DNA of 64,000 nt from a virus. Positions 17,966 through 64,000 of this stretch are shown piece by piece. The DNA lies in UHGV virus genome UHGV-1376088; one strand, 5' to 3'. The notes below the pieces were generated by a model. The model had not been told where the DNA came from. It was given only the letters and a program-made list of their open reading frames with translations, and searched no databases. A program made the translations under genes and the position numbers. How positions within the stretch are numbered: the stretch's first letter is position 1; every line of letters begins with the position of its first letter.

Positions 17966-18304
17966 AAATCTGGAAAATCAAAAAGATACAAATCAAAGAA
18001 ATCCTTGAAACAAAAGGATATTTCTTTTGTAATAAATATAAGCATTCACATGACAAAGCAAGAAGAATTATGCGCGAGCTGTGCAAAGAGGGTTTAGCAG
18101 AAAAGTGTGCTAGCCCTGCTGGACAAGTGGATGCTGTTTGTATTAGGGCCATAAAATGAGCACAACGACTATTTTACTACTTGTTCTTGCCAGTATCGTT
18201 GGCGGAATTATTATCGGGTTTATTGTTTTTGCTTTGTATTTTGCAAAAGGTTTCAAAATTAATTTCTAAACCTTATCTTAGAATTTTTGTCTAAAGGAAA
18301 CAAA

Positions 18305-19882
18305 ATGGCATCACCATTATTTAAAACTTCTCGTATCAATGTCTCTACGGGAGCATCTGTATCTGTACAGTCCAATAAGGTTAATACAACAAATGAATCC
18401 GGCGGCACTGCTTATGCTATGACACATCAGCATGCCCTTGCGCAATATGCTGTAACCGGTATGCTTGACGGCTATCTTCATGTTGATGGTCGAACTCAGC
18501 TGTCTCGTATTATTGAGCTGGCTGAAAAATGTAACAATAAGTATGTTGCGCAAGTTGCAATTTATGCCCACGAAAAAGGCTTCATGAAAGATACTTCTGC
18601 TTTGTTGCTGGGATATCTGATGAAAAAAGACCGCGATTTGTTTAACGCAATTTTTAAACGTATCATTACAAATGGCCGAATGTTAAGAACTTTCGTTCAA
18701 ATCATTCGTTCCGGTACTTTTGGCAATCGCAGTTTTGGTACAAATGCCAAACGCCAAATCCAAGATTGGCTAAATTCCGCAACAGACAAAACAATTATTA
18801 ATGCCTCCATTGGTAATGATCCGTCTCTGAAAGACATTATCAAAATGGTTCATCCAAAAGCACCAAATGAAAATCGTAACCAACTTTATCGTTGGGTTTG
18901 CGATATGGATTACCAGGAAGATAAACTTCCTGAACAGCTTCAACTGTATTTAAAATTGAAGCGTAATCCAGAAAAAGCAGAAGAACTGCCGGATTTGCCG
19001 TTCCAAATGTATACCTCTATGGGTTTAACAACAGAAGGTTGGAAACATATTGCTAATAATGCGACATGGAATCAGACCCGTATGAACTTGGCAACATTTG
19101 AGCGACATGGTGTATTTGGTGATAAAAGTTTTGCCGACAGAATTGCTGAGAAGCTTACATCTGAGCGTGATATCATTCGAAGTAAAGCTATGCCATTTGC
19201 CATTTTCTCTGCCTTTAAAAAGGCGGGCGATATTAGCTATAATATCCGCAAGGCTTTGAATAAAGCTGCAGAAATTTCTCTGCAAAATGTTCCGAAATTG
19301 GAAGGTAAAACAGTTGTTGCTGTTGACCGTTCTGGATCTATGTCCAGTCTGATTAATAGTCGCTCAACTGTTCGTGTAATGGATGTTGCAGCTGTTCTTG
19401 TTGCTGCTTTGAAAAACAAAAATCCAGATTTGGAAATTGTTTTATTCAATGACACAGCGTCCATTTATAAGCCAAAAGGCAAAACTCTTTTTGGTATCAG
19501 CGAAGAGCTTTCTCGTATGGCAAGCGGCGGAACAGATTGTGGTGCCGCAATGAAGTTTATCAAAAACCGGTACACAGATAAAGGCATGCCCGATAATATC
19601 ATCATGATTTCAGACAATGAATCATGGTTAGGTATGAGCAAGAATTTCTGGACATCCACAGGAACAGTTGAACAACTGAAATTAATTCGTCGTTCAAATC
19701 CTAATACCCGAATGATCAATATTGACGTAACTCCAGGTTCAAGTTCACAAACAGTTCCTGAAGAATACGTACTAAATATCGGCGGCTTTAATGACGCAGT
19801 ATTCCAAATCGCATCATTGTTCTTTAATTCTAAAGGCAATAAAGACTTTTGGATTTCTGAAATTAATAAAGTAGAAATTTAA
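18305..19882 (+). CDS. rsr: Ro60 ortholog (Rsr-like; TROVE domain + C-terminal vWA/MIDAS)
   Basis: ~525 aa; C-terminal vWA with MIDAS 'VVAVDRSGSMSS'; N-terminal helical TROVE-like region; SD 'aaggaa' before ATG (the track start 18287 is a TTG); followed by tRNA-like Y-RNA candidates. Confidence 0.65.
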   Translation: MASPLFKTSRINVSTGASVSVQSNKVNTTNESGGTAYAMTHQHALAQYAVTGMLDGYLHVDGRTQLSRIIELAEKCNNKYVAQVAIYAHEKGFMKDTSALLLGYLMKKDRDLFNAIFKRIITNGRMLRTFVQIIRSGTFGNRSFGTNAKRQIQDWLNSATDKTIINASIGNDPSLKDIIKMVHPKAPNENRNQLYRWVCDMDYQEDKLPEQLQLYLKLKRNPEKAEELPDLPFQMYTSMGLTTEGWKHIANNATWNQTRMNLATFERHGVFGDKSFADRIAEKLTSERDIIRSKAMPFAIFSAFKKAGDISYNIRKALNKAAEISLQNVPKLEGKTVVAVDRSGSMSSLINSRSTVRVMDVAAVLVAALKNKNPDLEIVLFNDTASIYKPKGKTLFGISEELSRMASGGTDCGAAMKFIKNRYTDKGMPDNIIMISDNESWLGMSKNFWTSTGTVEQLKLIRRSNPNTRMINIDVTPGSSSQTVPEEYVLNIGGFNDAVFQIASLFFNSKGNKDFWISEINKVEI

Positions 19883-19996
19883 TTTTAGATTTACAAAACA
19901 AAAATGTGTGGTTTAATCACTTCTACTGAGTAAGTAGAGTAATAGGTATCTCATTTCTTGTTTTCGGGGTACCTATTGCTATGTTTACTTTAGAGT

Positions 19997-20073
19997 CTAA
20001 GTGTAGCGCAGTCCGGTAGCGCATCTGCTTTGGGAGCAGAGGGTTGCAGGTTCGAATCCTGCCTCTTAGACCA
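19997..20073 (+). tRNA. tRNA-Pro (anticodon UGG)
   Basis: D-arm gcgc-agtccggta-gcgc; anticodon loop uuUGGga; T-loop ttcgaat; one U-U mismatch in the acceptor; CCA encoded. Confidence 0.7.
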
Positions 20074-20086
20074 CATTACAATTTTC

Positions 20087-20210
20087 GGGTGGTTAGTTTA
20101 ATGGGAAAACATTAAGTAATCTTTCTACTATTGTCTGAAAAGAATGCTTGAGAGATTTACATTTCACGGCTAATGAAAAGATACAGGTTCGAGTCCTGTA
20201 CCACCCTCCA
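20087..20210 (+). ncRNA. tRNA-like RNA (Y RNA / YrlA-like candidate) with ~47-nt insert in place of anticodon arm
   Basis: Perfect 7-bp acceptor gggtggt/accaccc; D-arm gttt-aatggga-aaac; canonical T-arm acagg-ttcgagt-cctgt; CCA; 124 nt total with no canonical anticodon stem-loop. Confidence 0.5.
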
Positions 20211-20215
20211 TATAT

Positions 20216-20357
20216 GGGCTGTTGGCGAAATTGGTAGACGCAAGGGTCATTTATAACCTATCAAACTTGTCCGATAGGAATGCCGATAGGTTTACATTTT
20301 TAAATTGAAAACTTAAGGACAACCCTCGATTTGCAGGTTCGACTCCTGCACAGCCCG
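20216..20357 (+). ncRNA. tRNA-like RNA (Y RNA / YrlA-like candidate) with ~65-nt insert in place of anticodon arm
   Basis: Perfect acceptor gggctgt/acagccc; class-II-type D-arm gcg-aaattggtaga-cgc; T-arm gcagg-ttcgact-cctgc; long-range helix agggt...accct enclosing ~72 nt with internal hairpins (cctatc/gatagg, ccgatagg repeated twice). Confidence 0.5.
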
Positions 20358-20367
20358 CCCTTTTAAT

Positions 20368-20619
20368 GCGAAGATAGTTTAATTGGTAAAACGCCACGCA
20401 AATCTTAGAATAATAACCATTATGTAGAGCCAAGTGGCTCGAAGAGCATACTCTATATTAAGATAGGGCTGGGTGCAATCCCGGGTATAGGCTAACGATC
20501 TATACTGAATGTAAATATTTTATGTCGAAAGACAGATAGCTCAATCCTTTAAGGAATGGTCTAAGATGGATAATTTCCGCGGTAAAGTGGTCATGCGGTG
20601 TCGATAGCTGCTCTTCGCT
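20368..20619 (+). ncRNA. tRNA-like element with ~175-nt insertion (intron-containing tRNA or large Y-like RNA)
   Basis: 5' gcgaaga-ta-gttt-aattggta-aaac D-arm and 3' ...gcggt-gtcgata-gctgc-tcttcgc acceptor pair 7/7 across 250 nt; the insert contains repeat A. Confidence 0.35.
20419..20516 (+). repeat. repeat element A (shared with 63372-63510)
   Basis: attatgtagRgccaagtggYtcgaagMgca ... ccgggtatagRYtaacgaYctatactgaaYRtaaa is shared between the two loci. Confidence 0.6.
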
Positions 20620-20655
20620 CCCTATTTAATTAACTGAATATCCAAAGGATTTAAG

Positions 20656-21183
20656 ATGCAGACGATTGCAATAAACCTAATAGGTGCACCCGGAACGGGC
20701 AAAAGCACAATAGCATCTGAGCTCTTTGCCAAGATGAAGTGGCTTGGATATGATGTTGAGTTGGTTTCCGAATACGCAAAAGAATTGGTTTGGGAACAAA
20801 GAAACGAAACTTTCAAGAATGAACTGTATCTATTTGCAAAACAGCATCATAGAATGTTTAGATTAAATGGTAAGGTGAAGTATATTATTACAGACCGCCC
20901 ATTAATTTTGTCTATTTTTTATAATCAAAAATATGGAAATGGCAGCAAAACATTCCGGCAGCTTGTATTGGAAGAAACAAATAAGTTTCAAAATATCAAT
21001 GTATTTCTGAATAGAACCAAACCATATGTTCAAAATGGCAGAAATCAAAGTGAAGAAGAATCCAATGAATTTGCAAAAGAAATATTCGAATCTCTTGAAA
21101 AATATTGCAATGGATATCTAATTCTAGACGCTGTTGAAAACCAGGCGTCTGAACATATATTGAATTTTGCAAAACAAGAATAA
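20656..21183 (+). CDS. P-loop NTPase/kinase-like protein
   Basis: Walker A 'GAPGTGKST' at the N-terminus, 'ITDRP' Walker-B-like; 175 aa; fold resembles small nucleoside/nucleotide kinases. Confidence 0.5.
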   Translation: MQTIAINLIGAPGTGKSTIASELFAKMKWLGYDVELVSEYAKELVWEQRNETFKNELYLFAKQHHRMFRLNGKVKYIITDRPLILSIFYNQKYGNGSKTFRQLVLEETNKFQNINVFLNRTKPYVQNGRNQSEEESNEFAKEIFESLEKYCNGYLILDAVENQASEHILNFAKQE

Positions 21184-21196
21184 GAATAGGTACAAC

Positions 21197-21397
21197 ATGA
21201 AAGAGTACACATTCTCATACAGGTTTGATAATAAAGCTTGGTCTTTCAGTATTTATGCAAACAGCGAAGAAGAAGCCAAGAGAAAGTTCTGGGCTTTAAA
21301 AGAAAATGGCAAATATTGCGGCGAGATTGTATGCAAAGTGAATGCTACAAAGCCGTACAGTTTTATTAAATCCATTTTGTCGAAGTTTAAGACATAA
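21197..21397 (+). CDS. small hypothetical protein
   Basis: ATG-initiated 66-aa ORF (the track start 21167 is a TTG). Confidence 0.35.
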   Translation: MKEYTFSYRFDNKAWSFSIYANSEEEAKRKFWALKENGKYCGEIVCKVNATKPYSFIKSILSKFKT

Positions 21398-21413
21398 GTT
21401 TAAGTTTAAATGC

Positions 21414-21506
21414 GCTCCCGTACCATAAAAGGATAATGGAACTGACTTCTAATCAGTAAGCCAAACGAAGGCGAGTATGCGGGTTCGAGTCCTGCCGGGA
21501 GTGCCA
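21414..21506 (+). tRNA. class-II-shaped tRNA with anticodon UCU (Arg codon AGA), long variable arm, G73
   Basis: Acceptor gctcccg/cgggagt; D ccat/atgg; anticodon stem actga/tcagt with loop cuUCUaa; 21-nt variable arm with gcc/ggc hairpin; T-loop ttcgagt; CCA encoded. Confidence 0.6.
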
Positions 21507-21612
21507 AAATGCCACAATCTATATATTATTATGGATTTCATTAAAAATAATGTTACTATTGATGAAGTAACTGGATGTTGGAATTGGAATAAATCTGTAA
21601 CAAGTGCAGGTT

Positions 21613-21870
21613 ATGGTCAATCTTAGCCCTACCGGGCATGCCAAATATAAAGGATTCAATATGGTATATTTAAATCTATTTGTGAAATATGTGAATCCAC
21701 GTGTTAGTGGAAGTACGGTTATTCAGGTCAAAGAAGACCATTTGAATTCTGAATTTGACTATATAGTTGAAGATGCTCTTTATGAAAAATTGAAAGAGTC
21801 TCTTCAAATGCCAGAAAGAGTTATAATTGAGAATATTGTAATTCTTGGGCGTTGTGAAAAAGACGATTAA
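21613..21870 (+). CDS. hypothetical protein
   Basis: ORF after the tRNA; weak RBS; start uncertain (ATG at 21613 or 21661). Confidence 0.3.
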   Translation: MVNLSPTGHAKYKGFNMVYLNLFVKYVNPRVSGSTVIQVKEDHLNSEFDYIVEDALYEKLKESLQMPERVIIENIVILGRCEKDD

Positions 21871-22075
21871 GACATAAACTGCCTGGCATGATGCAGTTTT
21901 AACTATCTAATCTGCCATTATTATTCTCAGTCTGGCATTCGCCAAAATGTTGCCGCATTTTGAGAATGATAAAATCATAGATGGTTATTTTCTGGTCCTA
22001 GCAGTCAATTTAGTTGACCCAGTACACTGTAAGCTGGAACTAAAGATAACGATTTAAACCCTGTTCTCCCTAAGC

Positions 22076-22146
22076 AATAATGTAGTTCAGTGGTAGAGCG
22101 TCTGCAATTTGGCAGAATGGCGGTGGTTCGATTCCACCCTTTATTG
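22076..22146 (+). tRNA. tRNA-like gene with non-canonical (6- or 8-nt) anticodon loop, identity undetermined (UUU/UUG region)
   Basis: Acceptor aataatg/ctttatt (6/7 pairs); D gttc-agtggta-gagc; stem tctgc/gcaga around 'aatttg'; T-arm ggtgg-ttcgatt-ccacc; one nt shorter than canonical; possible pseudogene or frameshift-type tRNA. Confidence 0.4.
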
Positions 22147-22631
22147 ACGAGAACAGGTACTCAATTTAATAATGAATCTTTATTCAGATTCATTTAGTCT
22201 GACAATGGTGTGATGAAATCTTAAGGGCTGTTCTTTGGATATTCTTAGTCTAATATTGAAATGTGCATTTCTTTATTGGGCTCTGTTTTATTTGAAGATA
22301 AAGCTTAAAAGGTTGCGATAGCAATAAAAACAATAAGGTGTTGCACAGCGCCTGTTTGGAGTATATTGTGAATGCTTGCACGTGTGCCGCGGAGGTACAA
22401 GGTTCCCGGAGTGGGATAAGTCAGACTAAATGTATTTGAAGCTAATTAAAGCTTAAAGATTTAAGCCCTGCTGATTTCTTATATAATATTGTTTATTATG
22501 ATTATTCTTATATTAGATAAATACTATTTTATCTTTTTCATTTTTCAGCAGGCATATTTAAGCCCTATTAGTTTATTCCGCAATATAGCTAAAATATTGT
22601 TCTAAAAATTAATAGGCAAAATAAAGATTAT

Positions 22632-22706
22632 AGCGAATTGGTGTAATTGGTAACACACAGGGCTCATAACCCTGAGTTATAGGTTCGAGTCCTATGTTCG
22701 CTTCCA
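22632..22706 (+). tRNA. tRNA-Met/Ile2 (anticodon CAU), second copy
   Basis: Acceptor agcgaat/gttcgct; D gtgt-aattggta-acac; anticodon stem caggg/ccctg with loop cuCAUaa; T-loop ttcgagt; CCA. Confidence 0.8.
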
Positions 22707-23491
22707 GATCCTTTCCTAGTGAGGATAACCACTGGTGACTTTTATGGATTTTGAACAGTGAAAATTCTTTGCCCCTTATGCAATAGTTAAGGCGTTTTCC
22801 GTGATGCGAGAAGTTCACGGCGCAATCCACAACGCGATAATCGTGGCGCTGCCCTTCGAAGCGATACGTTAGGGGTCTTCCTTTAGGCTTAATAAAAGGT
22901 AGTTTTTAGAGATTTATATTAAAAGCTCTATAGTTCTGTAGAATACAGAGCAATGGGTTCGTTGCCTGTTCCCATTGCTATGTGTTTTGACTTCCCGGCG
23001 GCCACTGGTTAATGGTCTGACTTAGATTGGTTCAAAGAAATCAATCCCCAAGGTGAGGGTATCGCACCTGTTGTAGGTTGTTCATAAAACCTTCGGTCTT
23101 TTGTGCTCTTTATTCCTTAATACAGGAGCATCGATTGGGTAATGAGACATAAGGTCCCAGTGGGTTTTAGCTTTTTTAACCACGCGAGTGATGTCGCAAA
23201 AGCAAAATGCATTTATGTATTGTTTACAGTATATAAAGTGATAGGTTTCTGCAGGACCTATTGCTGTATGTATTAATATCCCGCGAACCTTCGGTAAATG
23301 GTTCACCTTGCCAAAAGGAAAATTGGAAGTCTGGCATTGCTATGGAAGAATGCTGGTTCGTTGGTCCATCCTTAAAACCGATAAGCTTTTTGTGCATTTA
23401 CGGCTTTGACGATAAATGCCCCGAACTATTAATGTGAATGTATAGCCAGAGTGAATCCTTCTGGGGAGTGATGTCCGAAAAGGATTACAAT

Positions 23492-23578
23492 GCGAATGTG
23501 GCGAAATTTGGTATACGCGCTTGTCTTAGAAGCAGGTGTCCTAGTGGCGTGTGGGTTCGATCCCCTCCATTCGCACCA
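23492..23578 (+). tRNA. tRNA-Leu (anticodon UAG)
   Basis: Class II: D gcg-aaatttggtata-cgc; loop cuUAGaa; ~14-nt variable arm; T-loop ttcgatc; A73; CCA. Confidence 0.7.
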
Positions 23579-23584
23579 ATTCAT

Positions 23585-23660
23585 GCTGGAATAGCTCAAT
23601 TGGTAGAGCAACCATTTTGTAAGCGGTAGGTTGTTAGTTCGATTCTAATTTCCAGCACCA
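23585..23660 (+). tRNA. tRNA-Thr (anticodon UGU)
   Basis: Acceptor gctggaa/ttccagc; D gctc-aattggta-gagc; loop uuUGUaa; T-loop ttcgatt; CCA. Confidence 0.75.
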
Positions 23661-23663
23661 AAT

Positions 23664-23754
23664 GGAGGGACGGCAACGACGGTGGTGTTGCGGCAGACTG
23701 TAAATCTGTTCCGAAAGGTAAACATTGTAGGTTCGACTCCTATTCCCTCCACCA
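23664..23754 (+). tRNA. tRNA-Tyr (anticodon GUA)
   Basis: Acceptor ggaggga/tccctcc; loop cuGUAaa; long variable arm; T-loop ttcgact; CCA. Confidence 0.75.
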
Positions 23755-23758
23755 AATA

Positions 23759-23847
23759 CCGCGAGTGGCGTAACAAGGCAACCGCATCAGACTTAAAATC
23801 TGAGGATCGTAATGATCGTGTGGGTTCGACTCCCACCTCGCGGACCA
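23759..23847 (+). tRNA. tRNA-Leu (anticodon UAA)
   Basis: Acceptor ccgcgag/ctcgcgg; anticodon stem tcaga/tctga with loop cuUAAaa; variable arm hairpin; T-stem gtggg/cccac; A73; CCA. Confidence 0.75.
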
Positions 23848-23893
23848 ATACTGTATTGATAAATTCAATGCTATATAAAAATAGGTTTGATTT

Positions 23894-24217
23894 ATGAAAA
23901 CAGTTAAATTATCAGATTGCTCAAAGTTCCCCAAAGCTAAAGAAGATGGGGAACTTTTTGCCAGAACAAAACTTTTCCATGAGCTTTATAAAACCGAACA
24001 TACCTTAAGAATCGATTTTGATGGTACTTATGGAATTGCTCATTCGTTTTTAGAAGGACTCTTCGGTTTTCTTATTGATTCTGGATGTTTAACAATGAAA
24101 GAGATATTCAATAGGCTAACTATTAAAGCGGATGAATATCCCTATATAATTGAGGGAATATTCTGTATATTGGTGGAATACGATGAAAGAAACTTTGATA
24201 ATAGCCCCTGTAGTTGA
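23894..24217 (+). CDS. hypothetical protein
   Basis: 107-aa ORF immediately after the tRNA block. Confidence 0.4.
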   Translation: MKTVKLSDCSKFPKAKEDGELFARTKLFHELYKTEHTLRIDFDGTYGIAHSFLEGLFGFLIDSGCLTMKEIFNRLTIKADEYPYIIEGIFCILVEYDERNFDNSPCS

Positions 24218-24350
24218 AGTTAAAAAGATCCCTTCGTTTGCCGAGTTTATAGAAATGAGAACGCGGCAACTTCTAAGAGAATTAGACAAGCATTCAAAAA
24301 ATCTAGAAAAAGAGACTAATAAGCTTGTAGATATTATCTCTAATAGTTAA
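24183..24350 (+). CDS. small hypothetical protein
   Basis: ATG with 'ggtgg' RBS; overlaps the previous ORF's 3' end; speculative. Confidence 0.3.
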   Translation: MKETLIIAPVVEVKKIPSFAEFIEMRTRQLLRELDKHSKNLEKETNKLVDIISNS

Positions 24351-24377
24351 AATTTTAAAACAATAAAGTGTAGATGT

Positions 24378-24452
24378 TGGCATGTAGCTCAGCGGCAGAG
24401 CAGACGGCTGTTAACCGTCCGGTCGTAGGTTCGATCCCTACCGTGCCAGCCA
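24378..24452 (+). tRNA. tRNA-Asn (anticodon GUU)
   Basis: D gctc-agcggcag-agc; anticodon stem gacgg/ccgtc with loop cuGUUaa; T-loop ttcgatc; CCA. Confidence 0.75.
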
Positions 24453-24646
24453 AAAGATTATGGGCAGGTAGTTTAAGAGGAAAAAACCACGTGGGTGTAT
24501 ACCTTCGACGTTATTGGAATCGAGGCCAATTCTGTCCACTAATTTCCCATTTCCCATATATTTCAATCATCAATCCTTTCCACAGTACAGGGTTAAAATA
24601 TTTTGACTAATAGCGCCAACTAGCGGTCAAAGCTAATGGGAATTTC

Positions 24647-24733
24647 ACAACCATGACGGAATTGGTAGACGTATCGGTACTTAATGTGCCGAAGCCGGAG
24701 AGTGGCGTGCAGGTTCAAATCCTGCTGGTTGTG
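24647..24733 (+). tRNA. class-II tRNA, anticodon UAA (Leu-type) with U37 and G73
   Basis: Acceptor acaacca/tggttgt; D acg-gaattggtaga-cgt; anticodon stem cggta/tgccg with loop cuUAAug; 16-nt variable arm; T-loop ttcaaat; no CCA encoded. Confidence 0.6.
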
Positions 24734-24754
24734 ATACATAACAGAGGTGTAAAC

Positions 24755-24955
24755 ATGTCCAAGAAAAGATGTTTTGTTCTTTACGAACGAGAAGGCAAAA
24801 GAAATTCGGCCTTTATTGAAATTGATGATGTCTATATTACTGGTACTTTATTTAGATCTTTGAAATCTCATGTTTCTGATAAGATAGCTGACCTATATAC
24901 GGATAGGTATGGCTATGTATTAATTTTGGATTTCAAAGTTATTGCCTCTGTTTAG
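24755..24955 (+). CDS. small hypothetical protein
   Basis: ATG with SD 'agagg' just after the tRNA; the track ORF 24653 starts inside the tRNA. Confidence 0.4.
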   Translation: MSKKRCFVLYEREGKRNSAFIEIDDVYITGTLFRSLKSHVSDKIADLYTDRYGYVLILDFKVIASV

Positions 24956-24972
24956 TTTAAACGAATTTTAAT

Positions 24973-25046
24973 GCGGGCATGGTATAGAGGTTGTGCCTTA
25001 GCCTTCCAAGCTAATGAGAGGGATTCGAGTTCCCTTGCCCGCTCCA
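24973..25046 (+). tRNA. tRNA-Gly (anticodon UCC)
   Basis: Acceptor gcgggca/tgcccgc; anticodon stem ttagc/gctaa with loop cuUCCaa; T-arm aggga-ttcgagt-tccct; CCA. Confidence 0.75.
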
Positions 25047-25231
25047 ACAATTTAAGACAGGCGCTTGCAAGTTTGAGGGAAGTCATATTAGGCCCCGTGT
25101 CCATACAGCCTCCACGCACTCTGCCTGTCTAACCCTTATGTCCTGAATGCCTGCTACGACTACATCTGACTTTTTATCGGACATTAAGTGTCGAGCTATT
25201 TTTGTCAGGACTCTCTATAAAAGGTAACAGA

Positions 25232-25669
25232 ATGTCTGACTGGGAATATCAATCTTTTATTGCAGAAGACGATTTACTTCCTACCTTCTGTTATAGAATT
25301 AAGCATAGTGGTAATACTATTTCTATTCAATTTGGGCCTGTAAAACAATACAACGGTCTGCCGGTTTATTCTGTATGTCTATCAATTTATCGAAAACGTA
25401 AGCGTATTGATATTGATTTTAGCGCTCGATCTGTAACAGGAACTATTGGGACTACAGGATTACTGTTAGCAAAGCAAAGCTTCGACTTGTTTATCAAAGA
25501 ATTCTTTGATGAAGTGGATACGGATGGTGTTATCTTATCAGTACAAGGTGCTGATGTCAGACGATATAAAGTTTATAAGCGTACCCTTGAAAGAATGGGG
25601 TATACTGAAGGTAAGCTTTTGGGCTCTTTATGTATGAGTAAAGTTTACTATCGAGAAAGTCTTAAATGA
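25232..25669 (+). CDS. hypothetical protein
   Basis: ATG with SD 'aaaagg' (the track start 25202 is a TTG). Confidence 0.45.
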   Translation: MSDWEYQSFIAEDDLLPTFCYRIKHSGNTISIQFGPVKQYNGLPVYSVCLSIYRKRKRIDIDFSARSVTGTIGTTGLLLAKQSFDLFIKEFFDEVDTDGVILSVQGADVRRYKVYKRTLERMGYTEGKLLGSLCMSKVYYRESLK

Positions 25670-25689
25670 CTAAAATTTATATATTTTTC

Positions 25690-25780
25690 ACCACCTTAGC
25701 TTAATGGTAAAGCAGCGAGCTTATACCTCGTAACGACAGATAATCGGCTGATCTGGGTTCGAGTCCCGGAGGTGGTACCA
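25690..25780 (+). tRNA. class-II-shaped tRNA with anticodon UAU (Ile AUA), long variable arm
   Basis: Acceptor accacct/aggtggt; D gctt-aatggta-aagc; anticodon stem gcgag/ctcgt with loop cuUAUac; ~21-nt variable region; T-loop ttcgagt; A73; CCA. Confidence 0.55.
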
Positions 25781-25806
25781 TTAGAAAGTGTCGAGAGAGT
25801 TAAAAT

Positions 25807-25894
25807 GGAGAAGTGGCAGAGTGGACTATTGCACCTGACTTGAAATCAGCCGATCGGAAACGGTCCGTGGGTTCGAATCCCATCTTCTCCTCCA
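25807..25894 (+). tRNA. tRNA-Ser (anticodon UGA)
   Basis: Acceptor ggagaag/cttctcc; D gca/tgc; anticodon stem ctga/tcag with loop cuUGAaa; long variable arm; T-loop ttcgaat; U73; CCA. Confidence 0.65.
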
Positions 25895-47024: not shown

Positions 47025-48566
47025 ATGGAAGATAAAAATTTGTGTTTGAGCTTTTTAGCGCCTATGATGAATTTGTCTCAAACATTTTTAAATATTATCG
47101 AAAAAATTGAAAACGAAGAATGCTCTATTGACTCTTCGTTTCCTGAAAAGTTATTCAATAAGACGCCAAAAGAAGATGTTTTAAACGCGATTGAAACTCT
47201 CATTGATTATAATAATTTATTTTTGATTGACTTTGATGAGTATTCGAAAAAAGTAAAAACCTTATCAGATTTCGTTGGTAATTGTAACAACACAATTCTT
47301 TTCAGAAACTTTAGAACTGATAAGGGTCGTGAAGTTTGCTATATCAATAAGCAGATCCCAGACATTTATTCAGATAGGATTAAAGAGATCCATTCTAATA
47401 TTAGACCCTTAATAGGCCGCCTAACTCCTAGACTGAATTTAATTAAAAATCAGAATTCTACAGATTCATATGTAGACATTAATTACGATCAGATGGCCAT
47501 CAAATCAGATATTTCTTCGTTCTTTCGCTCTGTAAGATTTGAAAATGTTATTAAATACCTCTCTAAGACTTTCCTTGTTAAAAATATACTTATGTATAGC
47601 AAAAGTCAAACTGAAAACAAAGAGCTTAGAGTATTTGAGCGAATTGAAATTGCTTTATGGGGATTTATTAGTTGTCTATTCCATAATGGTATTATCCCTA
47701 CTGGAGCTAGATATGCAAATGATTTAGCCGCCTGCTATTTGAATAATCTTGTTTTTAATACCTTTAGAAAGGACATGCTATATTCGAATCGTGCAAGAAT
47801 CTATGTATATGTAGATGACCTGCTCTTTCTCGGAGAGGAAGGCAATGTTAAAGAATTTTATGCGGAATTCGAAAAGGCTATCAATAAAGGCGGACTATAT
47901 CTGAATTATAAGAAGACTCAATATTTTTATCCTAAAAATGGAATTCTTGAGTATTCTTCTTTGGGCAGAACTAGAAAATTTGACTTCACAACTGGTTTTG
48001 TTTCTAAAGTTGATTCGAAAGCCCGCAAAAAATGTTTGGATATTATTAAAGAGCGCCGCGAATACGATGCCTCTGAGAAGGGTATCATTAATTATGCATT
48101 ATATATGAGGCATGGAGCCAATAAGATTGTCAATCCAGATATATTAATGCATTCTTATTTTAATGATAAATCCGAACTGTGGGATAAACTTATAGCAGGT
48201 GAATTGAATCTGAAATTGAATAAGAGTATTTTTGATCCCACTAATCTGAAATATAAGGATATATGTATAATGTCAAAAGATATTGATGTCGGTTTTCTTT
48301 CCGCTCATCAATTCCTTGACATTACAGATGCGATAGCAGAATTTGTAAAACTGTTTATCCTCGACAATCCTTTTGGTCTTAACCTATATGGAATTAATCT
48401 AACAGAATCCAATGAGGGTAATTATAATTTAATTCTGAATTTGGTAAGACAACGATCCAGAGGCACTGCGAATATAATCCCATGTCCTTTAATTTTCAGA
48501 AAAGATTTCCTAAACGGACTTTATGTAGAAGGCAAAGATGAAAGCGCTTTAAATGGATGGATATAA
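47025..48566 (+). CDS. reverse transcriptase (standalone, unclassified)
   Basis: Motif A 'IKSDISSFFRSV', motif B' 'GIIPTGARYANDLAACYLNNL', motif C 'YVYVDDLLFLG', motif D 'LYLNYKKTQY'; extra N- and C-terminal regions; SD 'aaggaag'. Confidence 0.7.
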   Translation: MEDKNLCLSFLAPMMNLSQTFLNIIEKIENEECSIDSSFPEKLFNKTPKEDVLNAIETLIDYNNLFLIDFDEYSKKVKTLSDFVGNCNNTILFRNFRTDKGREVCYINKQIPDIYSDRIKEIHSNIRPLIGRLTPRLNLIKNQNSTDSYVDINYDQMAIKSDISSFFRSVRFENVIKYLSKTFLVKNILMYSKSQTENKELRVFERIEIALWGFISCLFHNGIIPTGARYANDLAACYLNNLVFNTFRKDMLYSNRARIYVYVDDLLFLGEEGNVKEFYAEFEKAINKGGLYLNYKKTQYFYPKNGILEYSSLGRTRKFDFTTGFVSKVDSKARKKCLDIIKERREYDASEKGIINYALYMRHGANKIVNPDILMHSYFNDKSELWDKLIAGELNLKLNKSIFDPTNLKYKDICIMSKDIDVGFLSAHQFLDITDAIAEFVKLFILDNPFGLNLYGINLTESNEGNYNLILNLVRQRSRGTANIIPCPLIFRKDFLNGLYVEGKDESALNGWI

Positions 48567-52513: not shown

Positions 52514-53176
52514 GTGTCTAAAATAGAAATGAACGTTTCGCCCGACGTCAAAAGGGCAATGACTAACTTTAAGACTGCAATGAATAAGAAGTATGGAGAA
52601 GGTAGTGATATTTTTGCCAACGGGCAGTATCAGAATTTTGAGTCTATCTCTTCTGGTTCTGCCATTCTTGATGGTCTTCTTGGTAATGGAGGATGGGTCA
52701 GGGGCCGTGTTCACGAAATCTTTGGCGCGTCCGGTTCTGGCAAATCCACTATTGTATCTTTGACTTGTGCAAATGCACGTCGACAATATCCGGATAAATA
52801 CATTTTATATGTGGACGCCGAACAAGCGCAAAACCATGCCTATATGAAAAAATTGGGGCTTGATTGCGAGAACGATGAAGGTGTCGTATTCCTCCAGATG
52901 CAGGAAGCTGAGAATGTCTTTGAAGTTATTGACGGTGCGGTTGCTACCGGCGCCTTTAGTTTGGTTGTCGTTGATAGTGTTCCAGCGTTAATGACTAAAC
53001 GCGAATTGAATGGCGATTACGACAAAGAAACGATGGCCGAGAAAGCTCGCTTCCTGTCTAAAGCTTTGCCCAAGCTTTTGGAATCTTTGAAGAAAGCTAA
53101 TACCACTATGATTTTTGTGAATCAGGTAAGGGACAAGATGGATATGTGGGGCGGAGTTACTACCCCTGGTAATAGT
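52514..53176 (+). CDS. recA: RecA/UvsX-family recombinase, exon 1 (N-terminal core up to the loop-2 region)
   Basis: 'ISSGSAILDGLLGNGGWVRGRVHEIFGASGSGKSTI' (Walker A), 'LVVVDSVPAL', 'IFVNQVRDKM...TTPGNS'; GTG start with SD 'aaagga'; homology stops at ...TTPGNS, then 14 junk codons to a stop. Confidence 0.75.
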
Positions 53177-53470
53177 ATCTATGGTTACTATTTAGTAACT
53201 GTAGATTTCTGCCGTTCATAGTGGAAACATTATGAATCATGATAGCGGAATTAAGCGAGAAAATCCTCCCTCTTAGATAGGACAACTCGAACCGAAGGCT
53301 GGCCCTAACGGCCCAGTCAGGGGCAACGCATAGAAGCTGAAACTAATAATAGAATATAATGCTTCCACGAGGCCGCTACACCTAAGTCCTTTGGATATGG
53401 TGAAAAAGTATGCTGAACTGCATTGTAATGATGCAGAGGCAGAGATAAAAAGCTCTGCGATAACAAAATG
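53177..53470 (+). other. intervening sequence in recA (candidate self-splicing intron, ~294 nt, no ORF)
   Basis: RecA homology resumes in the same frame at 53471; exon 1 ends in U and the intervening sequence ends in G; the segment is locally GC-richer (ggctggccctaacggcccagtcaggggcaacgc) than flanking DNA. Confidence 0.5.
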
Positions 53471-53905
53471 GGAAAAGCCATTCCGTTTTATTGCTCAAGT
53501 CGTGTTAAAGTAAATTCGACCCCGTCAATGCGAATTAAAAATTCAGCCGGCGATGGATTCATTGGTCAAACCGTGGACTTTACTATAATTAAGAATAAAG
53601 TCGGTAGTCCTTTTGGTGTTGGTGAATCTAATCTTTATTTTGGTGTTGGTTTTAATAAAGTTGAAGAACTTATTGAAGCTGCTATTGCCAAAGATGTTTT
53701 TGAAAAGGGCGGAGCCTGGTACACATTACCTTATTGTACTGAAGATGGCGAAGTTTTAAAATTTCAAGGTAAAACTGGCCTTAAATCATATTATGAAGCC
53801 AATCCTTCCGAATTAGATAAACTTCAAGAACTTGTTAACAATGCGGGACGTGATGATGAAATTCAAGTAGTTGGGGCGCCCGGTACAGTTGAGGATGGAT
53901 ATTAA
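53471..53905 (+). CDS. recA: RecA/UvsX-family recombinase, exon 2 (C-terminal part)
   Basis: 'KAIPFYCSSRVKV...IIKNKVGSPFGVGESNLYFGVGFNK...GGAWYTL' aligns to RecA '...KFYASVRLDIRR...[24 protein letters not shown]...AGAWYSY'. Confidence 0.7.
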   Translation, partial: GKAIPFYCSSRVKVNSTPSMRIKNSAGDGFIGQTVDFTIIKNKVGSPFGVGESNLYFGVGFNKVEELIEAAIAKDVFEKGGAWYTLPYCTEDGEVLKFQGKTGLKSYYEANPSELDKLQELVNNAGRDDEIQVVGAPGTVEDGY

Positions 53906-54475: not shown

Positions 54476-56233
54476 ATGGACTTTGTATCCACTCCTGAAA
54501 ATCCAAATGGTGATATTAAACCCGAAGATATCGGGAAGTATACGAATTTACATGCTCATAGCATTTATAGTCCTTTAGATGGCTTCGGTAAGCTTGAAGA
54601 ATATTGCGAACGGGTAAAAGCTCTAGGGATGAAAGGCTTATGCCTTTCTGAACATGGCAATATGATTGGTCATCATGAACAGGCTAAGATTTGTGCTAAG
54701 CATGGCATTAAGCCTATTTTTGCTAATGAAGGGTATATGACTCTTCATGCCGGATCTATTAAAGAAAAGATAGAGGGTTATAAGGCGAACTATCATATTT
54801 TGCTTATTGCTATTAATGAGCAGGGTTATAGAAACCTTATGAAAGCTACATCTATTGCTTGGACACGTTATAAATATTATAAGCCACGCTTTGATTTAGC
54901 ACTTCTTGAAGAATGCAACGAGGGCCTGATTTGTACATCTGCTTGTCTTGGCGGACCAATTAATCAGTTATATTTAGATGGCCGACCTGAAGAGGCTGAA
55001 CAGGTTGCGCTAAAGCTGAAAGAGATTTTCGGCGATAGATTTTATTTGGAAAAAACTTATACCGGCTTAGAAGAGCAAGATATTGCTAATAAGAATTTGG
55101 TTGAGATTTCTAAAAAGCATAATATACCTATGATTATTACTTGTGATAGTCATTATGTTTATCCTTGGCAATCTGATAGTCATGCAAAATTGGTTATGGT
55201 TAATACTGGCGGTCAAATCAATAAAGCGATTAAGGCTGCCGGCTTAACTGACTCTAGCAAAGAAGATGCTGACGTAGATAGCAACTCTATGTTCTATCAG
55301 CCTAGTCAGTATTATGTTAAACCACATCATGTATTGGTTGAAGAATATTATTCTAATCCTGAAGATGAAGAAGCCTTTGCCAATACTAATAAAATTGCAG
55401 ATATGTGCAATGTGGTTTTACCTAAAAATGAAGACATCATTTTTCCTTCACCATATTCTGATCCCGATTCTGTTTTAAGAGGACGGGCAATGCAATGGTA
55501 TTCGGAATACTCTAAAAAACTTTCTGATGAACAAAAAGCATTGTATTTAGATAGGCTGGAAGAAGAGCTGGATATGTATTCTAAAATGGGCTTTAGTTCT
55601 TATCCTTTGGTGCTGCAAGAGATTCTTGATGAAGCCAAAGCGAAAGGCATTATGATTGGCCCTGGCCGAGGATGCCTATTTGAGGGAACTAAAGTTCTAA
55701 TTAATAGATCCGGATCCATATATTATTGTCCGATTGAATTTGTCAAAGTCGGCGATATGGTATGGACACATAATAGCAGATGGAAGTCTGTATATCATAC
55801 CACTAAATATGTTGTAGACTATAGAGATATGGTTACTCTCGAGACAGAATATGGTATGATGCACCTCACAGAAGACCATAAAGTAAAAACAAAAAACCAT
55901 GGATTTATCCCTGCTATTGAATTAGACGGACAAATACACACACTGGATAGAGGAACTTTATCCGATGAAATTCTGTCTAAAGTTGAAGATTATAAAACCG
56001 ATTCAATCGAAAATTTTGAACTTTCTAGCTTCTATAATGAGGATGAACCTGTAAGGGTTTATGATCTTATGGTTGATGAAGATTGTTCTTTTAGAACTAA
56101 TATCTGTATGGTGCACAATAGTGCCGCGGGGTCTTTACTCTCTTATGCATTAGGTATTACTGCTATTGACCCTATACCATATGGACTAATGTTCAGTCGT
56201 TATCTTAACGCCGGACGCGCAAAACTACCGGTT
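54476..56233 (+). CDS. dnaE: DNA polymerase III alpha (DnaE) exon 1: PHP domain through the GPGRG...SAAGS...LNAGRAKLPV region, containing a mini-intein
   Basis: PHP 'NLHAHSIYSPLDGFG...CLSEHGNMIGH'; 'GIMIGPGRG[intein]SAAGSLLSYALGITAIDPIPYGLMFSRYLN'; homology to E. coli '...ERVSMPDFDVDFC' ends at ...KLPV; the ORF then reads 18 non-homologous codons to a stop at 56287. Confidence 0.8.
55673..56119 (+). other. mini-intein (Hint domain, 149 aa, no homing endonuclease) in DnaE
   Basis: Inserted between GPGRG and SAAGS; begins 'CLFEG' (Cys1) and ends 'VHN' followed by Ser+1; length consistent with a mini-intein. Confidence 0.7.
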
Positions 56234-56290
56234 ATTGAAATTAAAGGCTACCCATTAAAAGAGTGGCTAACAACAGAAAGAAAATAAAAA

Positions 56291-57654: not shown

Positions 57655-58770
57655 ATGTATATTCTTAGTATTGTATTCAGTAATCATTGTGATTTGGATT
57701 GTTCTTATTGCTGCATACAGTCTAAGAATATGTCTCCTGTATTGGCGAATTTAGAACAGATTAAAGATTTCATTAGAAAATATGCAAAGACAGGATCCAT
57801 TGTTGAATTTTATGGAGGTGAACCTACCCTTCATAAAAAAGAGCTATTTGATATCATCAATTTCTGTAGCTCTCTTGATATGGACATTGGCACTAGGCTA
57901 TATACTAATGGATTATTTGCTAACTGGACAGAGGAAGAGATTCTTTCTCTGTCTTACATTTTAGATGAAGTTCTCATTTCTCTTGATGGATCTACATTTG
58001 AAGAGAATAAACAGCGCTTTGAAAATCAGGCCCAGTTTGATGCTGTCCTGAATAATATTAAAACAATGCGAAAATCTGAGGATTTGAACATTACTTTAAG
58101 TTCTGTTTTATATGGTCGATCCAAATTTGAGAATATGTTCTCTAATTACAAATTCTTTTCGGCGCTTGGTGTTGATACCTTTAGCTATGAGCCGGTCACT
58201 ATATATAGGACAGACAAAGCTGTTATTATCCCTAGGGATTTCTTTGGTGCTTTATTTAAGGGCATTATGGAAATTTCTAGGGACATTTTTATTTCCGGAA
58301 AAGAGCGATCTTTGTTTGTAGCAAAAGAACTGTTAGCTGCTTCTTGGTATCATCAGGGAGACAAGGATTTATGTTCTAAGAACGTAAGAGCCATTTCTCC
58401 GCGCGGCAATATTTATATGTGTCGTGATCATGCAGCTAATGAAGAAGAGATGTTTTATTCTCCTAAAGTTATTCAGTTCTTTAATAAGAATAACCTGAAG
58501 TCAGATAATGAATCATTCCCACTAGTGGAAGAAAACGAAAAAGACTTAACGCATTGTCCTGTTAAAAATATACAATACAGACAAGCTGGTGTTGAAAAGG
58601 ATCTATACTGGTTATCTGATTCGTGGCAAGATTTTGTAGTAAAACCTATGTATTCTACGATTCTTGCTGTAAACTCTCAGGCCGATAATCTGTCTGAAAT
58701 AATTGATTATTTTTATCCTAAAGTTGATGAGTTATTAAAAATAGCTATTAGTCAGGAAGGAATTAAATGA
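57655..58770 (+). CDS. radical SAM / SPASM-domain enzyme (anSME/PqqE-like peptide-modifying maturase family)
   Basis: 'SNHCDLDCSYCC' = CX3CX2C; 'VEFYGGEPTLH' SAM-binding GGE motif; additional C-terminal Cys cluster (CSKN...CRDH...HCPV); 371 aa. Confidence 0.7.
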   Translation: MYILSIVFSNHCDLDCSYCCIQSKNMSPVLANLEQIKDFIRKYAKTGSIVEFYGGEPTLHKKELFDIINFCSSLDMDIGTRLYTNGLFANWTEEEILSLSYILDEVLISLDGSTFEENKQRFENQAQFDAVLNNIKTMRKSEDLNITLSSVLYGRSKFENMFSNYKFFSALGVDTFSYEPVTIYRTDKAVIIPRDFFGALFKGIMEISRDIFISGKERSLFVAKELLAASWYHQGDKDLCSKNVRAISPRGNIYMCRDHAANEEEMFYSPKVIQFFNKNNLKSDNESFPLVEENEKDLTHCPVKNIQYRQAGVEKDLYWLSDSWQDFVVKPMYSTILAVNSQADNLSEIIDYFYPKVDELLKIAISQEGIK

Positions 58771-59045
58771 AGTTGGAAGATATTAAAGTCGGCCAAATTG
58801 TTAAAGATAAGTTTGACAATGAATATATTGTCAAGGAAATTATTGAAGATGACTCAATGCCGGTTAAATTGAAATGTACTAAATTTTTGAAACCAATTAA
58901 TGTTCAAAAAATTGGTGACATATATTTTAAGGAGGCTGGCATAAGTTTTTGGATTTATAAATCTGGAAAAGATGCACGAGTATGCGGCTGTGATGTTGAT
59001 TGTATTACCGTTGAATCTCTCAAACTGAAAGGTGAATCAAAATGA
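58767..59045 (+). CDS. small protein, 'MKLxDIKVG' paralog family
   Basis: MKLEDIKVGQIVKDKFDNEYIVKEI...CITVESLKLKGESK; paralog of 10847..11122. Confidence 0.5.
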   Translation: MKLEDIKVGQIVKDKFDNEYIVKEIIEDDSMPVKLKCTKFLKPINVQKIGDIYFKEAGISFWIYKSGKDARVCGCDVDCITVESLKLKGESK

Positions 59046-59683
59046 AACTTGAAAATGTCAAAGTCGGTATGCTTCTTAAGGACAAATTCGGCAACGAATA
59101 TGAAGTTATTGAAATTAATAGAAATGACGACTTTCAACCTGTTCGAGTAAAATGTGTTAAATTTGTAAAAAGAGTTTGCTTCAAAACTGAACGCGATGTC
59201 ATTTATCGCGCCGGGTCTATGGCATGGCTATTAAAAGACCATTCACATGTATTGTCCATTGATGATGACTATGGAAGATTTATAAAGGAAACCTTTTATC
59301 CAGATCTTTCTGATGCAATGTTTAATGAAGCGGTATCTGTCAAATTAAGTATTTCTAATTACAATTATCGCAATTTTGTGCTCGGAACTCAGGAAGCAAT
59401 CAGCAGAATTGAAATCACACTAAGAGATTTGAGTCTTGCTGAAAACTTTTTGCATAGAGGTAATGTCAGCCTATATGATACTGTGTTTGATCAGGCTTAT
59501 ACTCCATATGAGGTATTGGCATTTACGGACGACAAAGTTTGCTTAAGGGTTAAGACGAGATTCCGTAACACTGACAATAAGACTAAATACATGGAGTCTA
59601 TGGCATGGATACCATTTTATGATGGTAAAAGTCCAGACAGTGATGATGTTACCACAAAAGATTTCATGATTATGAAAGGTTAA
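59042..59683 (+). CDS. 'MKLxDIKVG' family protein with C-terminal extension
   Basis: MKLENVKVGMLLKDKFGNEYEVIEI... N-terminal 90 aa paralogous to 58767 and 10847. Confidence 0.5.
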   Translation: MKLENVKVGMLLKDKFGNEYEVIEINRNDDFQPVRVKCVKFVKRVCFKTERDVIYRAGSMAWLLKDHSHVLSIDDDYGRFIKETFYPDLSDAMFNEAVSVKLSISNYNYRNFVLGTQEAISRIEITLRDLSLAENFLHRGNVSLYDTVFDQAYTPYEVLAFTDDKVCLRVKTRFRNTDNKTKYMESMAWIPFYDGKSPDSDDVTTKDFMIMKG

Positions 59684-62508: not shown

Positions 62509-63001
62509 ATATGTCATAGACTGTTCTAGTCCTAGGCGAAAAACGCGAAATAGAATTAGAAGGTTTGAAAAATCTATTCTTATGCTGGAAGGATTGAGGT
62601 ATTTTGCATTTCCTAAAGATTTGGCCAATATAGAAAAAAGAATTCAACAATATAAAGATAAGATCCGAGAAAAGGAACTTAGATATGGCGATTTTTTACA
62701 CCTTTGCGGCATTAAAAAAGATATTAGCGAAACCCAAAGGAAGATACACTTTAATAAAATCCAATTTAGAGAGCTTAATGAAAAAATTAACTCTATAAAC
62801 AGCTATATCGAAAGTGCTATAAATCCCTTTGATTTTGATTATATCGAATTGAGAATTATCAAATCGAAAAAGGAAATGCAACGCCTTAAGGATTTGCGAA
62901 TTGCTCTTGGAAAAGAACAATATGGTCTAAAGAAAAGGCTCAAAGAGGGTTATCGTTCTTTAGCAAATCTCCATAATGATACAGGTAAAGAAAATGGCTG
63001 A
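62501..63001 (+). CDS. hypothetical basic coiled-coil protein
   Basis: ORF overlapping the upstream stop. Confidence 0.4.
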   Translation: MDKYVIDCSSPRRKTRNRIRRFEKSILMLEGLRYFAFPKDLANIEKRIQQYKDKIREKELRYGDFLHLCGIKKDISETQRKIHFNKIQFRELNEKINSINSYIESAINPFDFDYIELRIIKSKKEMQRLKDLRIALGKEQYGLKKRLKEGYRSLANLHNDTGKENG

Positions 63002-63257
63002 ATATAAAACATTAAGAGAATTAGTTTTATCCTTTTCTGACACCGATTGGTTTAAAGAACATAGAGCAAATATTATGTTTGAATTAAACCATTGTGAACT
63101 TCATCATATTGATTCCTATTATTTGAATTTATACAATGCAGGCGTTAAAGGTATAGAGGAAAATGAAGCTAATTCTTCTATTGCATATTTACTCGGAATT
63201 GTAACAACCCCGCCAAATGGTAAAGTTCATACTGTTGGCGGAGGTTTCCCGGATTAA
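62994..63257 (+). CDS. hypothetical protein
   Basis: ATG with 'aggtaaag' RBS (the track start 62976 is an upstream ATG). Confidence 0.4.
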   Translation: MAEYKTLRELVLSFSDTDWFKEHRANIMFELNHCELHHIDSYYLNLYNAGVKGIEENEANSSIAYLLGIVTTPPNGKVHTVGGGFPD

Positions 63258-63371
63258 AGAAATAGTCCCTTTGTTAAGAAATTGACAACAGAAAACTCTG
63301 TGAAAACGGTGGAACTCTCTAGAAGACAATGCCGTGCGAAAGTTTGCGAAAGCGAAAGACGTGTAACGACT

Positions 63372-63510
63372 ATTATGTAGGGCCAAGTGGTTCGAAGCGC
63401 AGAGCACCTAAATCCTTATGGACATGGTGATGAGATAGTCTGGTCTCTATGGCGACATAGAGCTGGTTTTGTACCGGGTATAGATTAACGACCTATACTG
63501 AACATAAACG
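63372..63510 (+). repeat. repeat element B (shares termini with 20419-20516); candidate intron 3' core abutting dnaE exon 2
   Basis: attatgtagggccaagtggttcgaagcgca ... ccgggtatagattaacgacctatactgaacataaacg; contains 'gagatagtc' resembling a group I P7/S-element; ends in G immediately before the exon. Confidence 0.5.
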
Positions 63511-64000
63511 ATTGATTCCGATGTAGAAAAAGAAAGACGCGCTGAAGTATTTGAAATGCTTAAAGATAAGTATGGAGAAGGATTTGCGCATCTTGGTACA
63601 CTAACCTATACTGGCGGCAAAAAGGCATTTAAAGATGCTGCACGTATTCATGGTATGGGTTTTGATAAAGCAAATAAGATATCGTCCATGATGCCTGAAA
63701 TTGGATGTCCTCCACTTGACGTATTACTCAAAGAAGACGATGAAATCAAGGCATTGTATGACTCAGACCCCGAAGTAAAAGAGGTCTGGGACGATGCAAT
63801 TAAGCTCAGTGACTGTTTATCCAGTCAAGGGGTTCATGCATGTGGAGTTGCATTGTCTGATCGTCCACTATGGGAAGATGTTCCACTTTGGGATAGCAAA
63901 GGCGTTCCTGTTATTCAGTGGGAAGGTAATAAAATTGAAGAAACGTCAAATGTTGTAAAATTAGATGTGCTTGGGTTAAAAACGCTTACAGTTCTTAACT
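63511..64000 (+). CDS. dnaE: DnaE exon 2 (partial; continues beyond the window)
   Basis: 'IDSDVEKERRAEVFEMLKDKYGEGFAHLGTLTYTGGKKAFKDAARIHGMGF...GVHACGVALSD...VKLDVLGLKTLTVL' aligns with E. coli DnaE '...[21 protein letters not shown]...AGKHAGGVVIAP...VKFDFLGLRTLTII'; no start codon; in-frame stop 6 nt upstream. Confidence 0.75.
   Translation, partial: MDSDVEKERRAEVFEMLKDKYGEGFAHLGTLTYTGGKKAFKDAARIHGMGFDKANKISSMMPEIGCPPLDVLLKEDDEIKALYDSDPEVKEVWDDAIKLSDCLSSQGVHACGVALSDRPLWEDVPLWDSKGVPVIQWEGNKIEETSNVVKLDVLGLKTLTVLN

Follow-up and report, generated by a model that had tools for sequence, protein, structure and literature searches.

The alpha subunit of DNA polymerase III (Pol III alpha) is counted among the most intein-rich bacterial proteins by Novikova et al. 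(2016, PMC4760082), where its insertion sites, designated a to g, comprise a cluster in the finger domain (a-d and g) and further sites in the PHP domain, site a being split. The split inteins of cyanobacterial DnaE (Ssp and Npu) belong to class 1 and lie in the Pol III catalytic subunit, as does the element described here. Inteins in Pol III alpha of actinobacteriophages were recently reported (bioRxiv 10.1101/2025.01.02.630785), self-splicing elements have been noted in the polymerase gene of phage G (PMC7824862), and in jumbo phages separate, distant genes encode the two parts of a split Pol III alpha, of which the N-terminal one binds NTP and the C-terminal one binds Mg2+ and DNA (Iyer et al., 2021, PMC7824862). 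Solved structures of class-1 mini-inteins include those of Spl DnaX (7cfv), Ssp and Npu DnaB (1mi8 and 4o1r), Mtu RecA delta-mini (2in0), and gp41-1 (6qaz).

We analyzed a stretch of 64,000 nt from the virus genome UHGV-1376088, a gut phage, referred to below as the window. Its ORF 54476..56287 (plus strand, 603 aa) contains a PHP domain (Pfam, E=4.7e-41), matches the NCBIfam models of DnaE at ~1e-90, and aligns with the Pfam family DNA_pol3_alpha (the beginning of the NTPase domain of Pol III alpha) in two stretches with an insert between them. Comparative sequence analysis and structure modelling make it very probable that this insert represents a canonical class-1 mini-intein, hosted by the N-terminal subunit of a two-piece phage DnaE. 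The corresponding features of the window are as follows.

54476..55672, plus strand: N-extein of the DnaE N-terminal subunit, comprising PHP and the first half of the NTPase/palm domain of Pol III alpha, last residues GPGRG (Pfam, NCBIfam)
55673..56119, plus strand: predicted class-1 mini-intein of 149 aa, CLFEGTKVLI ... ICMVHN (homologues, profile, AF2/Foldseek, pN/pS)
55673..55675, plus strand: Cys1 codon TGC, the predicted block A nucleophile (C1 column invariant in alignment A1, see below)
55868..55879, plus strand: block B, T66-E-D-H69 of the TxxH type (T66 and H69 invariant in A1)
56051..56095, plus strand: block F, VRVYDLMVDEDCSFR, with Asp131 at 56063-56065 and Cys138 replacing the usual His (aligned with the relatives and the Spl DnaX mini-intein)
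56114..56119, plus strand: block G, His148-Asn149 (CAC AAT), with the predicted cyclising terminal Asn (N149 invariant in A1; TIGR01443)
56120..56122, plus strand: Ser+1 (AGT), the predicted C-extein nucleophile and, at the same time, the Ser residue within the GS motif of the polymerase (phmmer alignments)
56120..56287, plus strand: C-extein, reading SAAGSLLSYALGIT...RAKLP and continuing into a conserved tail, VIEIKGYPLKEWLTTERK, up to the stop codon (conservation in orthologues)

The predicted intein shares with the solved mini-inteins the Hint fold, a length of ~130-160 aa, Cys1, TxxH, the block F Asp, the terminal His-Asn, a +1 nucleophile, and the lack of an endonuclease; however, it is only 15-26% identical to them, resides in another host protein and at another site, and has a Cys in block F where they mostly have His. 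Engineered deletion of the endonuclease gave rise to several of the solved mini-inteins, whereas the one in the window is natural. Its location in the GS motif of the palm differs from the finger- and PHP-domain sites given in the accessible text of PMC4760082. The intein of Bacillus phage G gp329 (JN638751) shares with it the GPGRG/SAAGS site (here and below, the slash marks the insertion point), Cys1, and the terminal His-Asn followed by Ser. This phage G intein is 245 aa long with a central insert and scores 43.7 bits with the Pfam family Intein_splicing, but its similarity to the window intein is confined to short stretches at the ends (29 aa and 21 aa, each at 52% identity). It has been present in GenBank since 2011 without being annotated, gp329 being described as 'DNA polymerase III; DnaE-like' only. 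The division of DnaE in the window is the same as that of the jumbo-phage Pol III alpha; however, the jumbo-phage version is minimal and devoid of other Pol III domains, whereas in the window the N-subunit includes PHP and the C-subunit includes the finger and HhH domains, and an N-subunit intein is not described for the jumbo-phage split protein (PMC7824862).

The insert occupies positions 55673-56119, that is 447 nt or 149 codons, in frame with the surrounding ORF. Its first codon, TGC (Cys), at 55673 is preceded by GGC CCT GGC CGA GGA (GPGRG), and its last codons, CAC AAT (His-Asn), at 56114-56119 are followed by AGT (Ser) at 56120-56122 and GCC GCG GGG TCT (AAGS), the host motif being split as GPGRG/SAAGS. 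The first-pass annotation of this DNA had described a 149-aa insertion with Cys first, His-Asn last, and Ser next, which is confirmed codon by codon; it had also assigned the insertion site to DnaE, in agreement with the matches to DnaE models and with orthologues that are contiguous at this point. A search with the conceptually spliced extein (454 aa) retrieved relatives from a clade of ~170-190 kb phage contigs. Twelve orthologues of 425-465 aa with 42-81% identity (P0056, P0058, P0059, P0062-65, P0067, P0068, P0070, P0073, and P0082) contain an uninterrupted GPGRGSAAGS, and the empty site is visible at the DNA level in one of the related contigs, L005. Therefore, the insert is genuine and its borders are defined with single-residue precision. 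The host motif is contiguous in solved DnaE structures as well as in the intein-less homologues, and ungapped phmmer alignments to 2hnh/2hqa and 2hpi place the junction at G363/S364 of the E. coli enzyme and at G425/S426 of the Taq enzyme, respectively. We take this junction to be the Pol-beta-like GS motif of family C polymerases, which contacts the triphosphate of the incoming nucleotide (Lamers 2006; Bailey 2006). The residue at position -1 of the intein is Gly399, and the predicted tryptic peptide across the ligated junction is GSAAGSLLSYALGITAIDPIPYGLMFSR.

The insert is linked to inteins of solved structure through a profile and a structure model, for both of which its relatives were used. 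On the 149 aa alone, the Pfam family Intein_splicing scores 14.6 bits against a gathering score of 35.8 and covers the C-terminal part only, while TIGR01443 (intein_Cterm), with Ser+1 included, just exceeds its cut-off of 15.6 bits at 17.5 bits. A phmmer search of the PDB with the intein alone gave no direct match, and a word-indexed protein search returned one fragment only (P0001). Exhaustive phmmer/HMMER comparison with 1.84 billion proteins yielded 40 matches at E<=1e-3 (best non-self match, 5.6e-11), and each of the 40 is an intein whose host is a phage protein resembling a terminase, a portal protein, DnaE, a methyltransferase, or a helicase, which speaks against a chance pattern. The borders of these inteins in the domain table coincide with those of the query, Cys1 corresponding to residue 1 and the Asn of the terminal His-Asn, followed by Ser, Cys, or Thr, to residue 149. 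From these matches we hand-selected 16 mini-inteins and aligned them with the query (alignment A1, 17 sequences), in which the columns of C1, T66, H69, and N149 are invariant. The A1 profile matched 54 solved intein/Hint chains in the PDB, with the Spl DnaX mini-intein at the top (3.5e-15) and with a BIL domain, Mtu RecA, Npu DnaB, and gp41-1 among the others. The AlphaFold model of the intein from its single sequence was uninformative (pLDDT 35), while the AF2 model with the A1 alignment reached a pLDDT of 93 and a pTM of 0.87, and the top 50 Foldseek matches of this model in the PDB are all inteins, BIL domains, or Hedgehog Hint domains (probability 1.00, TM 0.6-0.72), which assigns it to the Hint fold.

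The residues characteristic of class-1 inteins, namely Cys1, TxxH, Asp131 in block F, His148, Asn149, and Ser+1, are all present in the insert. Blocks F and G read VYD131L...C138SF...VH148N149, and comparison of the query block F (VYDLMVDEDCSF) with the consensus of its relatives in A1 (VYDLxVEEDHSF) shows that the usual His is replaced by Cys138. A Cys in place of the block F His is tolerated by many inteins. Class 3 inteins are distinguished by the WCT triplet (block B Trp, F:4 Cys, and G:5 Thr) and do not require a Cys1 nucleophile (PMC5222942); here, F:4 is Asp131, G:5 is Val147, the WCT triplet is absent, and Cys1 is present. Thus, all the Hint blocks (A, B, F, and G) for which the first-pass annotation had suggested an alignment check are found, and its mini-intein reading is upheld by homologues that are all inteins, the Hint fold, profile membership, and the empty site in orthologues. 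Neither of the two outcomes that it had named as refuting, a lack of Hint blocks or a lineage-specific DnaE loop, is borne out.

We infer that the intein splices by the standard class-1 pathway, which predicts the following order of steps. An N-S acyl shift at the Gly399-Cys1 bond, aided by T66 and H69 of block B, would be followed by transesterification onto the hydroxyl of Ser+1 to give a branched intermediate; Asn149, with help from His148 and Asp131, would then cyclise and release the intein, and an O-N shift would create a Gly-Ser peptide bond and restore GPGRGSAAGS. The nucleotide-binding site would exist only in the spliced 454-aa product, the unspliced precursor being presumably inactive, which would make splicing obligatory for replication of the phage.

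The same junction is occupied by other inteins in several relatives, including P0057 (206 aa), P0060/61 (159 aa), P0066 (193 aa), and P0113 (394 aa), as well as by the intein of phage G. The intein of P0113 contains a LAGLIDADG_3 domain above the Pfam cut-off, and the extein hosting the P0057 intein is nearly identical to the empty-site protein P0056. The inteins sharing this site have diverged widely from that of the window. The closest same-site relative (P0039, 39% identity over 85 aa) is the N-half of a naturally split intein. This split intein, at GPGRG/S, is encoded at positions 1-1051 of L009, a Logan contig (SRR22308577), where a 91-aa IntN ending at a stop codon is followed by a 69-aa ORF and then by the IntC half starting MKLKNKKIVHYKGEVIDLCVENSHTYNVEG. 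Another protein, P0023, may be a second split-intein case. Since different inteins are found at the same junction, the GS junction of phage Pol III alpha has been recurrently invaded and, as judged from these sequences, is a recurrent intein site with at least six divergent inteins.

In phage DnaE, this site is a hot spot of inteins, and it may be an uncatalogued one: the accessible literature text on Pol III alpha inteins gave no description of a GS-motif site, and a literature search on GPGRGS found no paper. The split inteins there, such as that of L009, could become protein-engineering tools. It is unlikely, in our estimation, that the intein is more than a stranded selfish element and has been kept as a conditional switch. 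If the intein were a switch, splicing in the sole NTP-binding motif would gate the assembly of an active replicase from the two polymerase subunits, with redox state (via Cys1, Cys138, and Cys145) or the presence of the C-subunit as possible cues.

To assess selection on the intein, we compared the window with L001, an 83%-identical relative that has the same intein, stop codon, and downstream genes. The ratio of proportions pN/pS is 0.064 for the intein (148 codons) and 0.053 for the N-extein, with a pS of 0.69, i.e., with synonymous sites near saturation; proportions were used, and dS is saturated for the C-terminal half of the intein. Nucleotide identity between the two genomes is 82.9% in the intein and 84.5% in the extein. 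Moreover, 14 near-identical entries contain the same intein with an intact ORF and a few substitutions, none of which affects a catalytic position; the substitutions cluster in residues 86-114, where full-length inteins have their endonuclease. The low pN/pS is a signature of purifying selection on the intein, and its similar identity to the extein indicates that it co-diverged with the host gene and is not a recent arrival, as expected for an endonuclease-less intein kept by the need to splice.

These data bear directly on the proposal that the insert is a splicing-dead or decaying intein, or a permanent insertion derived from a Hint domain, with the N-subunit ORF being either a relic or an enzyme that works with a retained loop. 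The lack of an endonuclease domain, which puts the intein past its mobile phase, the Pfam score below the threshold, and the Cys in place of the block F His are compatible with decay. However, the residues for all four steps are intact, a pN/pS of 0.064 has been maintained over 148 codons while synonymous divergence came close to saturation, and at least 14 variants retain the ORF intact, their substitutions sparing the catalytic positions. In addition, a 149-aa domain retained between the Gly and Ser of the NTP-binding motif is expected to abolish activity, and this motif is the only copy in the enzyme, as the C-subunit corresponds to Pfam profile positions 96-260 only. We thus regard the decay scenario as improbable and the mini-intein as almost certainly functional, to the extent that its conserved sequence can tell.

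No homing-endonuclease domain is present between blocks B and F, which are only ~40 aa apart, and no endonuclease family of Pfam matches the 149-aa insert. The largest ORF inside the intein in an alternative frame measures 67 aa and matches no Pfam family, and searches of the neighbouring ORFs against Pfam and PHROGs revealed no endonuclease family. The earlier statement that the insertion contains no endonuclease domain is thus substantiated for its own frame and for the other frames. With no homing endonuclease, the intein would no longer be self-mobile and would be inherited vertically within the phage lineage, as a remnant of an invasion at a repeatedly invaded site. Alternatively, a hidden homing endonuclease of a non-canonical type, read from another frame or the antisense strand or provided in trans by a neighbouring gene, could keep the intein mobile and make the mini-intein label wrong. 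Architectures of that kind have been reported for actinobacteriophage inteins (bioRxiv 10.1101/2025.01.02.630785), and ORFs flanking the intein gene have no assigned function; however, the small size of the alternative-frame ORF, the lack of endonuclease families among the neighbours, and the equal divergence of intein and extein between the window and L001, which fits vertical descent rather than recent homing, render this option very improbable. BIL domains typically belong to variable regions of non-conserved proteins, are not associated with a conserved host motif plus a +1 nucleophile, and usually have no junctions competent for splicing. Hence, although BIL and Hedgehog Hint structures (2lwy, 6y75, and 1at0) are among the Foldseek and profile matches, there is hardly any chance that the insert is a BIL or Hedgehog-type autoprocessing domain that would cleave the N-subunit into two fragments instead of splicing it, given that it interrupts an invariant motif contiguous in orthologues, has canonical junctions ending in His-Asn before Ser, lacks that typical BIL setting, and has as its closest sequence homologues inteins with His-Asn followed by Ser, Cys, or Thr.

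The host of the mini-intein is one of two DnaE cistrons located ~6.7 kb apart in the window, the second of which starts at 62976; about ten unrelated ORFs, including one for a radical SAM protein, lie between them. The N-subunit comprises PHP and the NTP-binding half of the enzyme, and the C-subunit comprises the catalytic half with the DxD motif, the fingers, and HhH. Accordingly, the spliced N-subunit covers positions 8-106 of the Pfam DNA_pol3_alpha profile, while the C-subunit covers positions 96-260 plus the finger domain. The genes for the two subunits are ~8 kb apart in the intein-less relative L005. The tail of the N-subunit (...RAKLPVIEIKGYPLKEW) is conserved as protein in ~30 orthologues of 425-465 aa, and therefore it is a genuine subunit end and not an intron read-through. 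Both the DnaE split and the tail P[LV]IE[FI]xGYP are kept across the clade down to 42% identity. The segment PVIEIK of the tail aligns with the catalytic PDIDID, D401 being replaced by V and D403 by E, and thus represents a degenerate PDIDID motif. Two other ideas about the subunits were considered and dropped. An intron right after ...RAKLP in the intein ORF, as in phage G, has no Rfam match, and the tail in question is conserved protein in orthologues. The first ~90 aa of the C-subunit (...NSSIAYLLGIV...) could have been a degenerate duplicate of the GS segment, but gave no BLASTP alignment with it, and the Pfam matches of the two subunits run end-to-end with ~10 positions overlapping.

The C-subunit gene is interrupted by a group I intron, and its features in the window are the following.

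62976..63254, plus strand: exon 1 of the DnaE C-terminal subunit, ending ...GGGFPD (the intron-less gene of L005 reads GGGFPDIDSD)
63255..63510, plus strand: group I intron of 256 nt within the catalytic motif PD/ID(S)D (RF00028; borders from L005)
63511..64000, plus strand: exon 2 of the C-subunit (IDSDVEKERR...), running past the window end (Pfam DNA_pol3_alpha and finger domain on the spliced product)

The Rfam model RF00028 matches positions 63245-63462 with 67.2 bits (gathering score 50, E=1.6e-15). At the junction GGGFPD/IDSD, the final base of the 5' exon is U and the final base of the intron is G. The intron has no ORF and is absent from the orthologous gene of L005. The first-pass annotation had placed a protein-level and an RNA-level interruption in the same gene: the RNA-level element is real, as the RF00028 match shows, but the two elements share an enzyme and not a gene, because the intein ORF stops at 56287 and the intron belongs to the second cistron, with its start at 62976. 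An intron next to the intein-bearing ORF was not detected by Rfam. In phage G, as in the window, the N-terminal gene breaks off right after ...R(G/A)KLP, before the catalytic DxD motif; however, this break leads to a homing-endonuclease gene in phage G and coincides with a conserved subunit boundary in the window. In the phage G genome (L002, 2917-6889), the homing-endonuclease gene gp330 follows ...RGKLP of gp329, and DnaE resumes in gp331; the gp330 break is probably an intron at the point where DnaE is split in the window.

Megablast of 10 kb against the INPHARED phages gave no match. The protein with the mini-intein, DAD57436.1, bears the NCBI name 'MAG TPA: hypothetical protein [Bacteriophage sp.]' and the JGI name 'DNA polymerase III alpha subunit', and the intein is unannotated in both. 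Its recognition implies that the mature product has 454 aa and not 603. An unannotated natural 149-aa class-1 mini-intein with Ser+1 is a well-known kind of selfish element and will not surprise a specialist: replication proteins are favoured by inteins at their active-site motifs, and self-splicing elements build up in large phage genomes (PMC4760082, PMC7824862). Some modest extra interest comes from the two-subunit polymerase context and from the split-intein relative, small natural mini-inteins and split inteins being raw material for protein engineering.

Further interruptions were observed in the window and in its relatives. The RecA-like gene of the window is interrupted at ~53174-53473, between the ORFs 52514..53221 and 53468..53905, at the point between ...TTPG and (G/K)AIPFY..., as judged against the intact 367-aa orthologue of L005. 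This intervening sequence of ~300 nt has a weak match to RF00028 (12.4 bits, E=1.1) and is probably a divergent self-splicing intron. In contig L007, at 19877-21812 (equivalent to ~64350-66290 of the window, past its end), another interruption of the DnaE C-subunit gene, after ...NELIFQE, consists of a free-standing 265-aa LAGLIDADG-like ORF and non-coding sequence, and a further one seems to follow ...YAFN; no intron was found by Rfam at these C-subunit interruptions. In L005, a large intein at 19395-21362 occupies another site of the C-subunit (GVHA/CGVAISD), one that is lacking from the window. The distribution of self-splicing elements among these phages is mosaic.

Several other genes of the window are also of note. 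A reverse-transcriptase gene (Pfam RVT_1) at ~47025-48566 (2550-4091 in L007) adjoins a ThiF-family gene and is located upstream of the RuvC/RecA/DnaE module; L005 has such a gene too. Downstream of the intein gene, at 58767-59683, adjacent ORFs of 92 and 213 aa have similar N-termini (MKLE[DN][IV]KVG..[VL]KDKF[DG]NEY.V.EI); the pair is absent from the related L001 and reflects either a local duplication or an indel. Finally, 12 tRNA genes (Rfam RF00005) are clustered on the plus strand of the window at 17695-25891.
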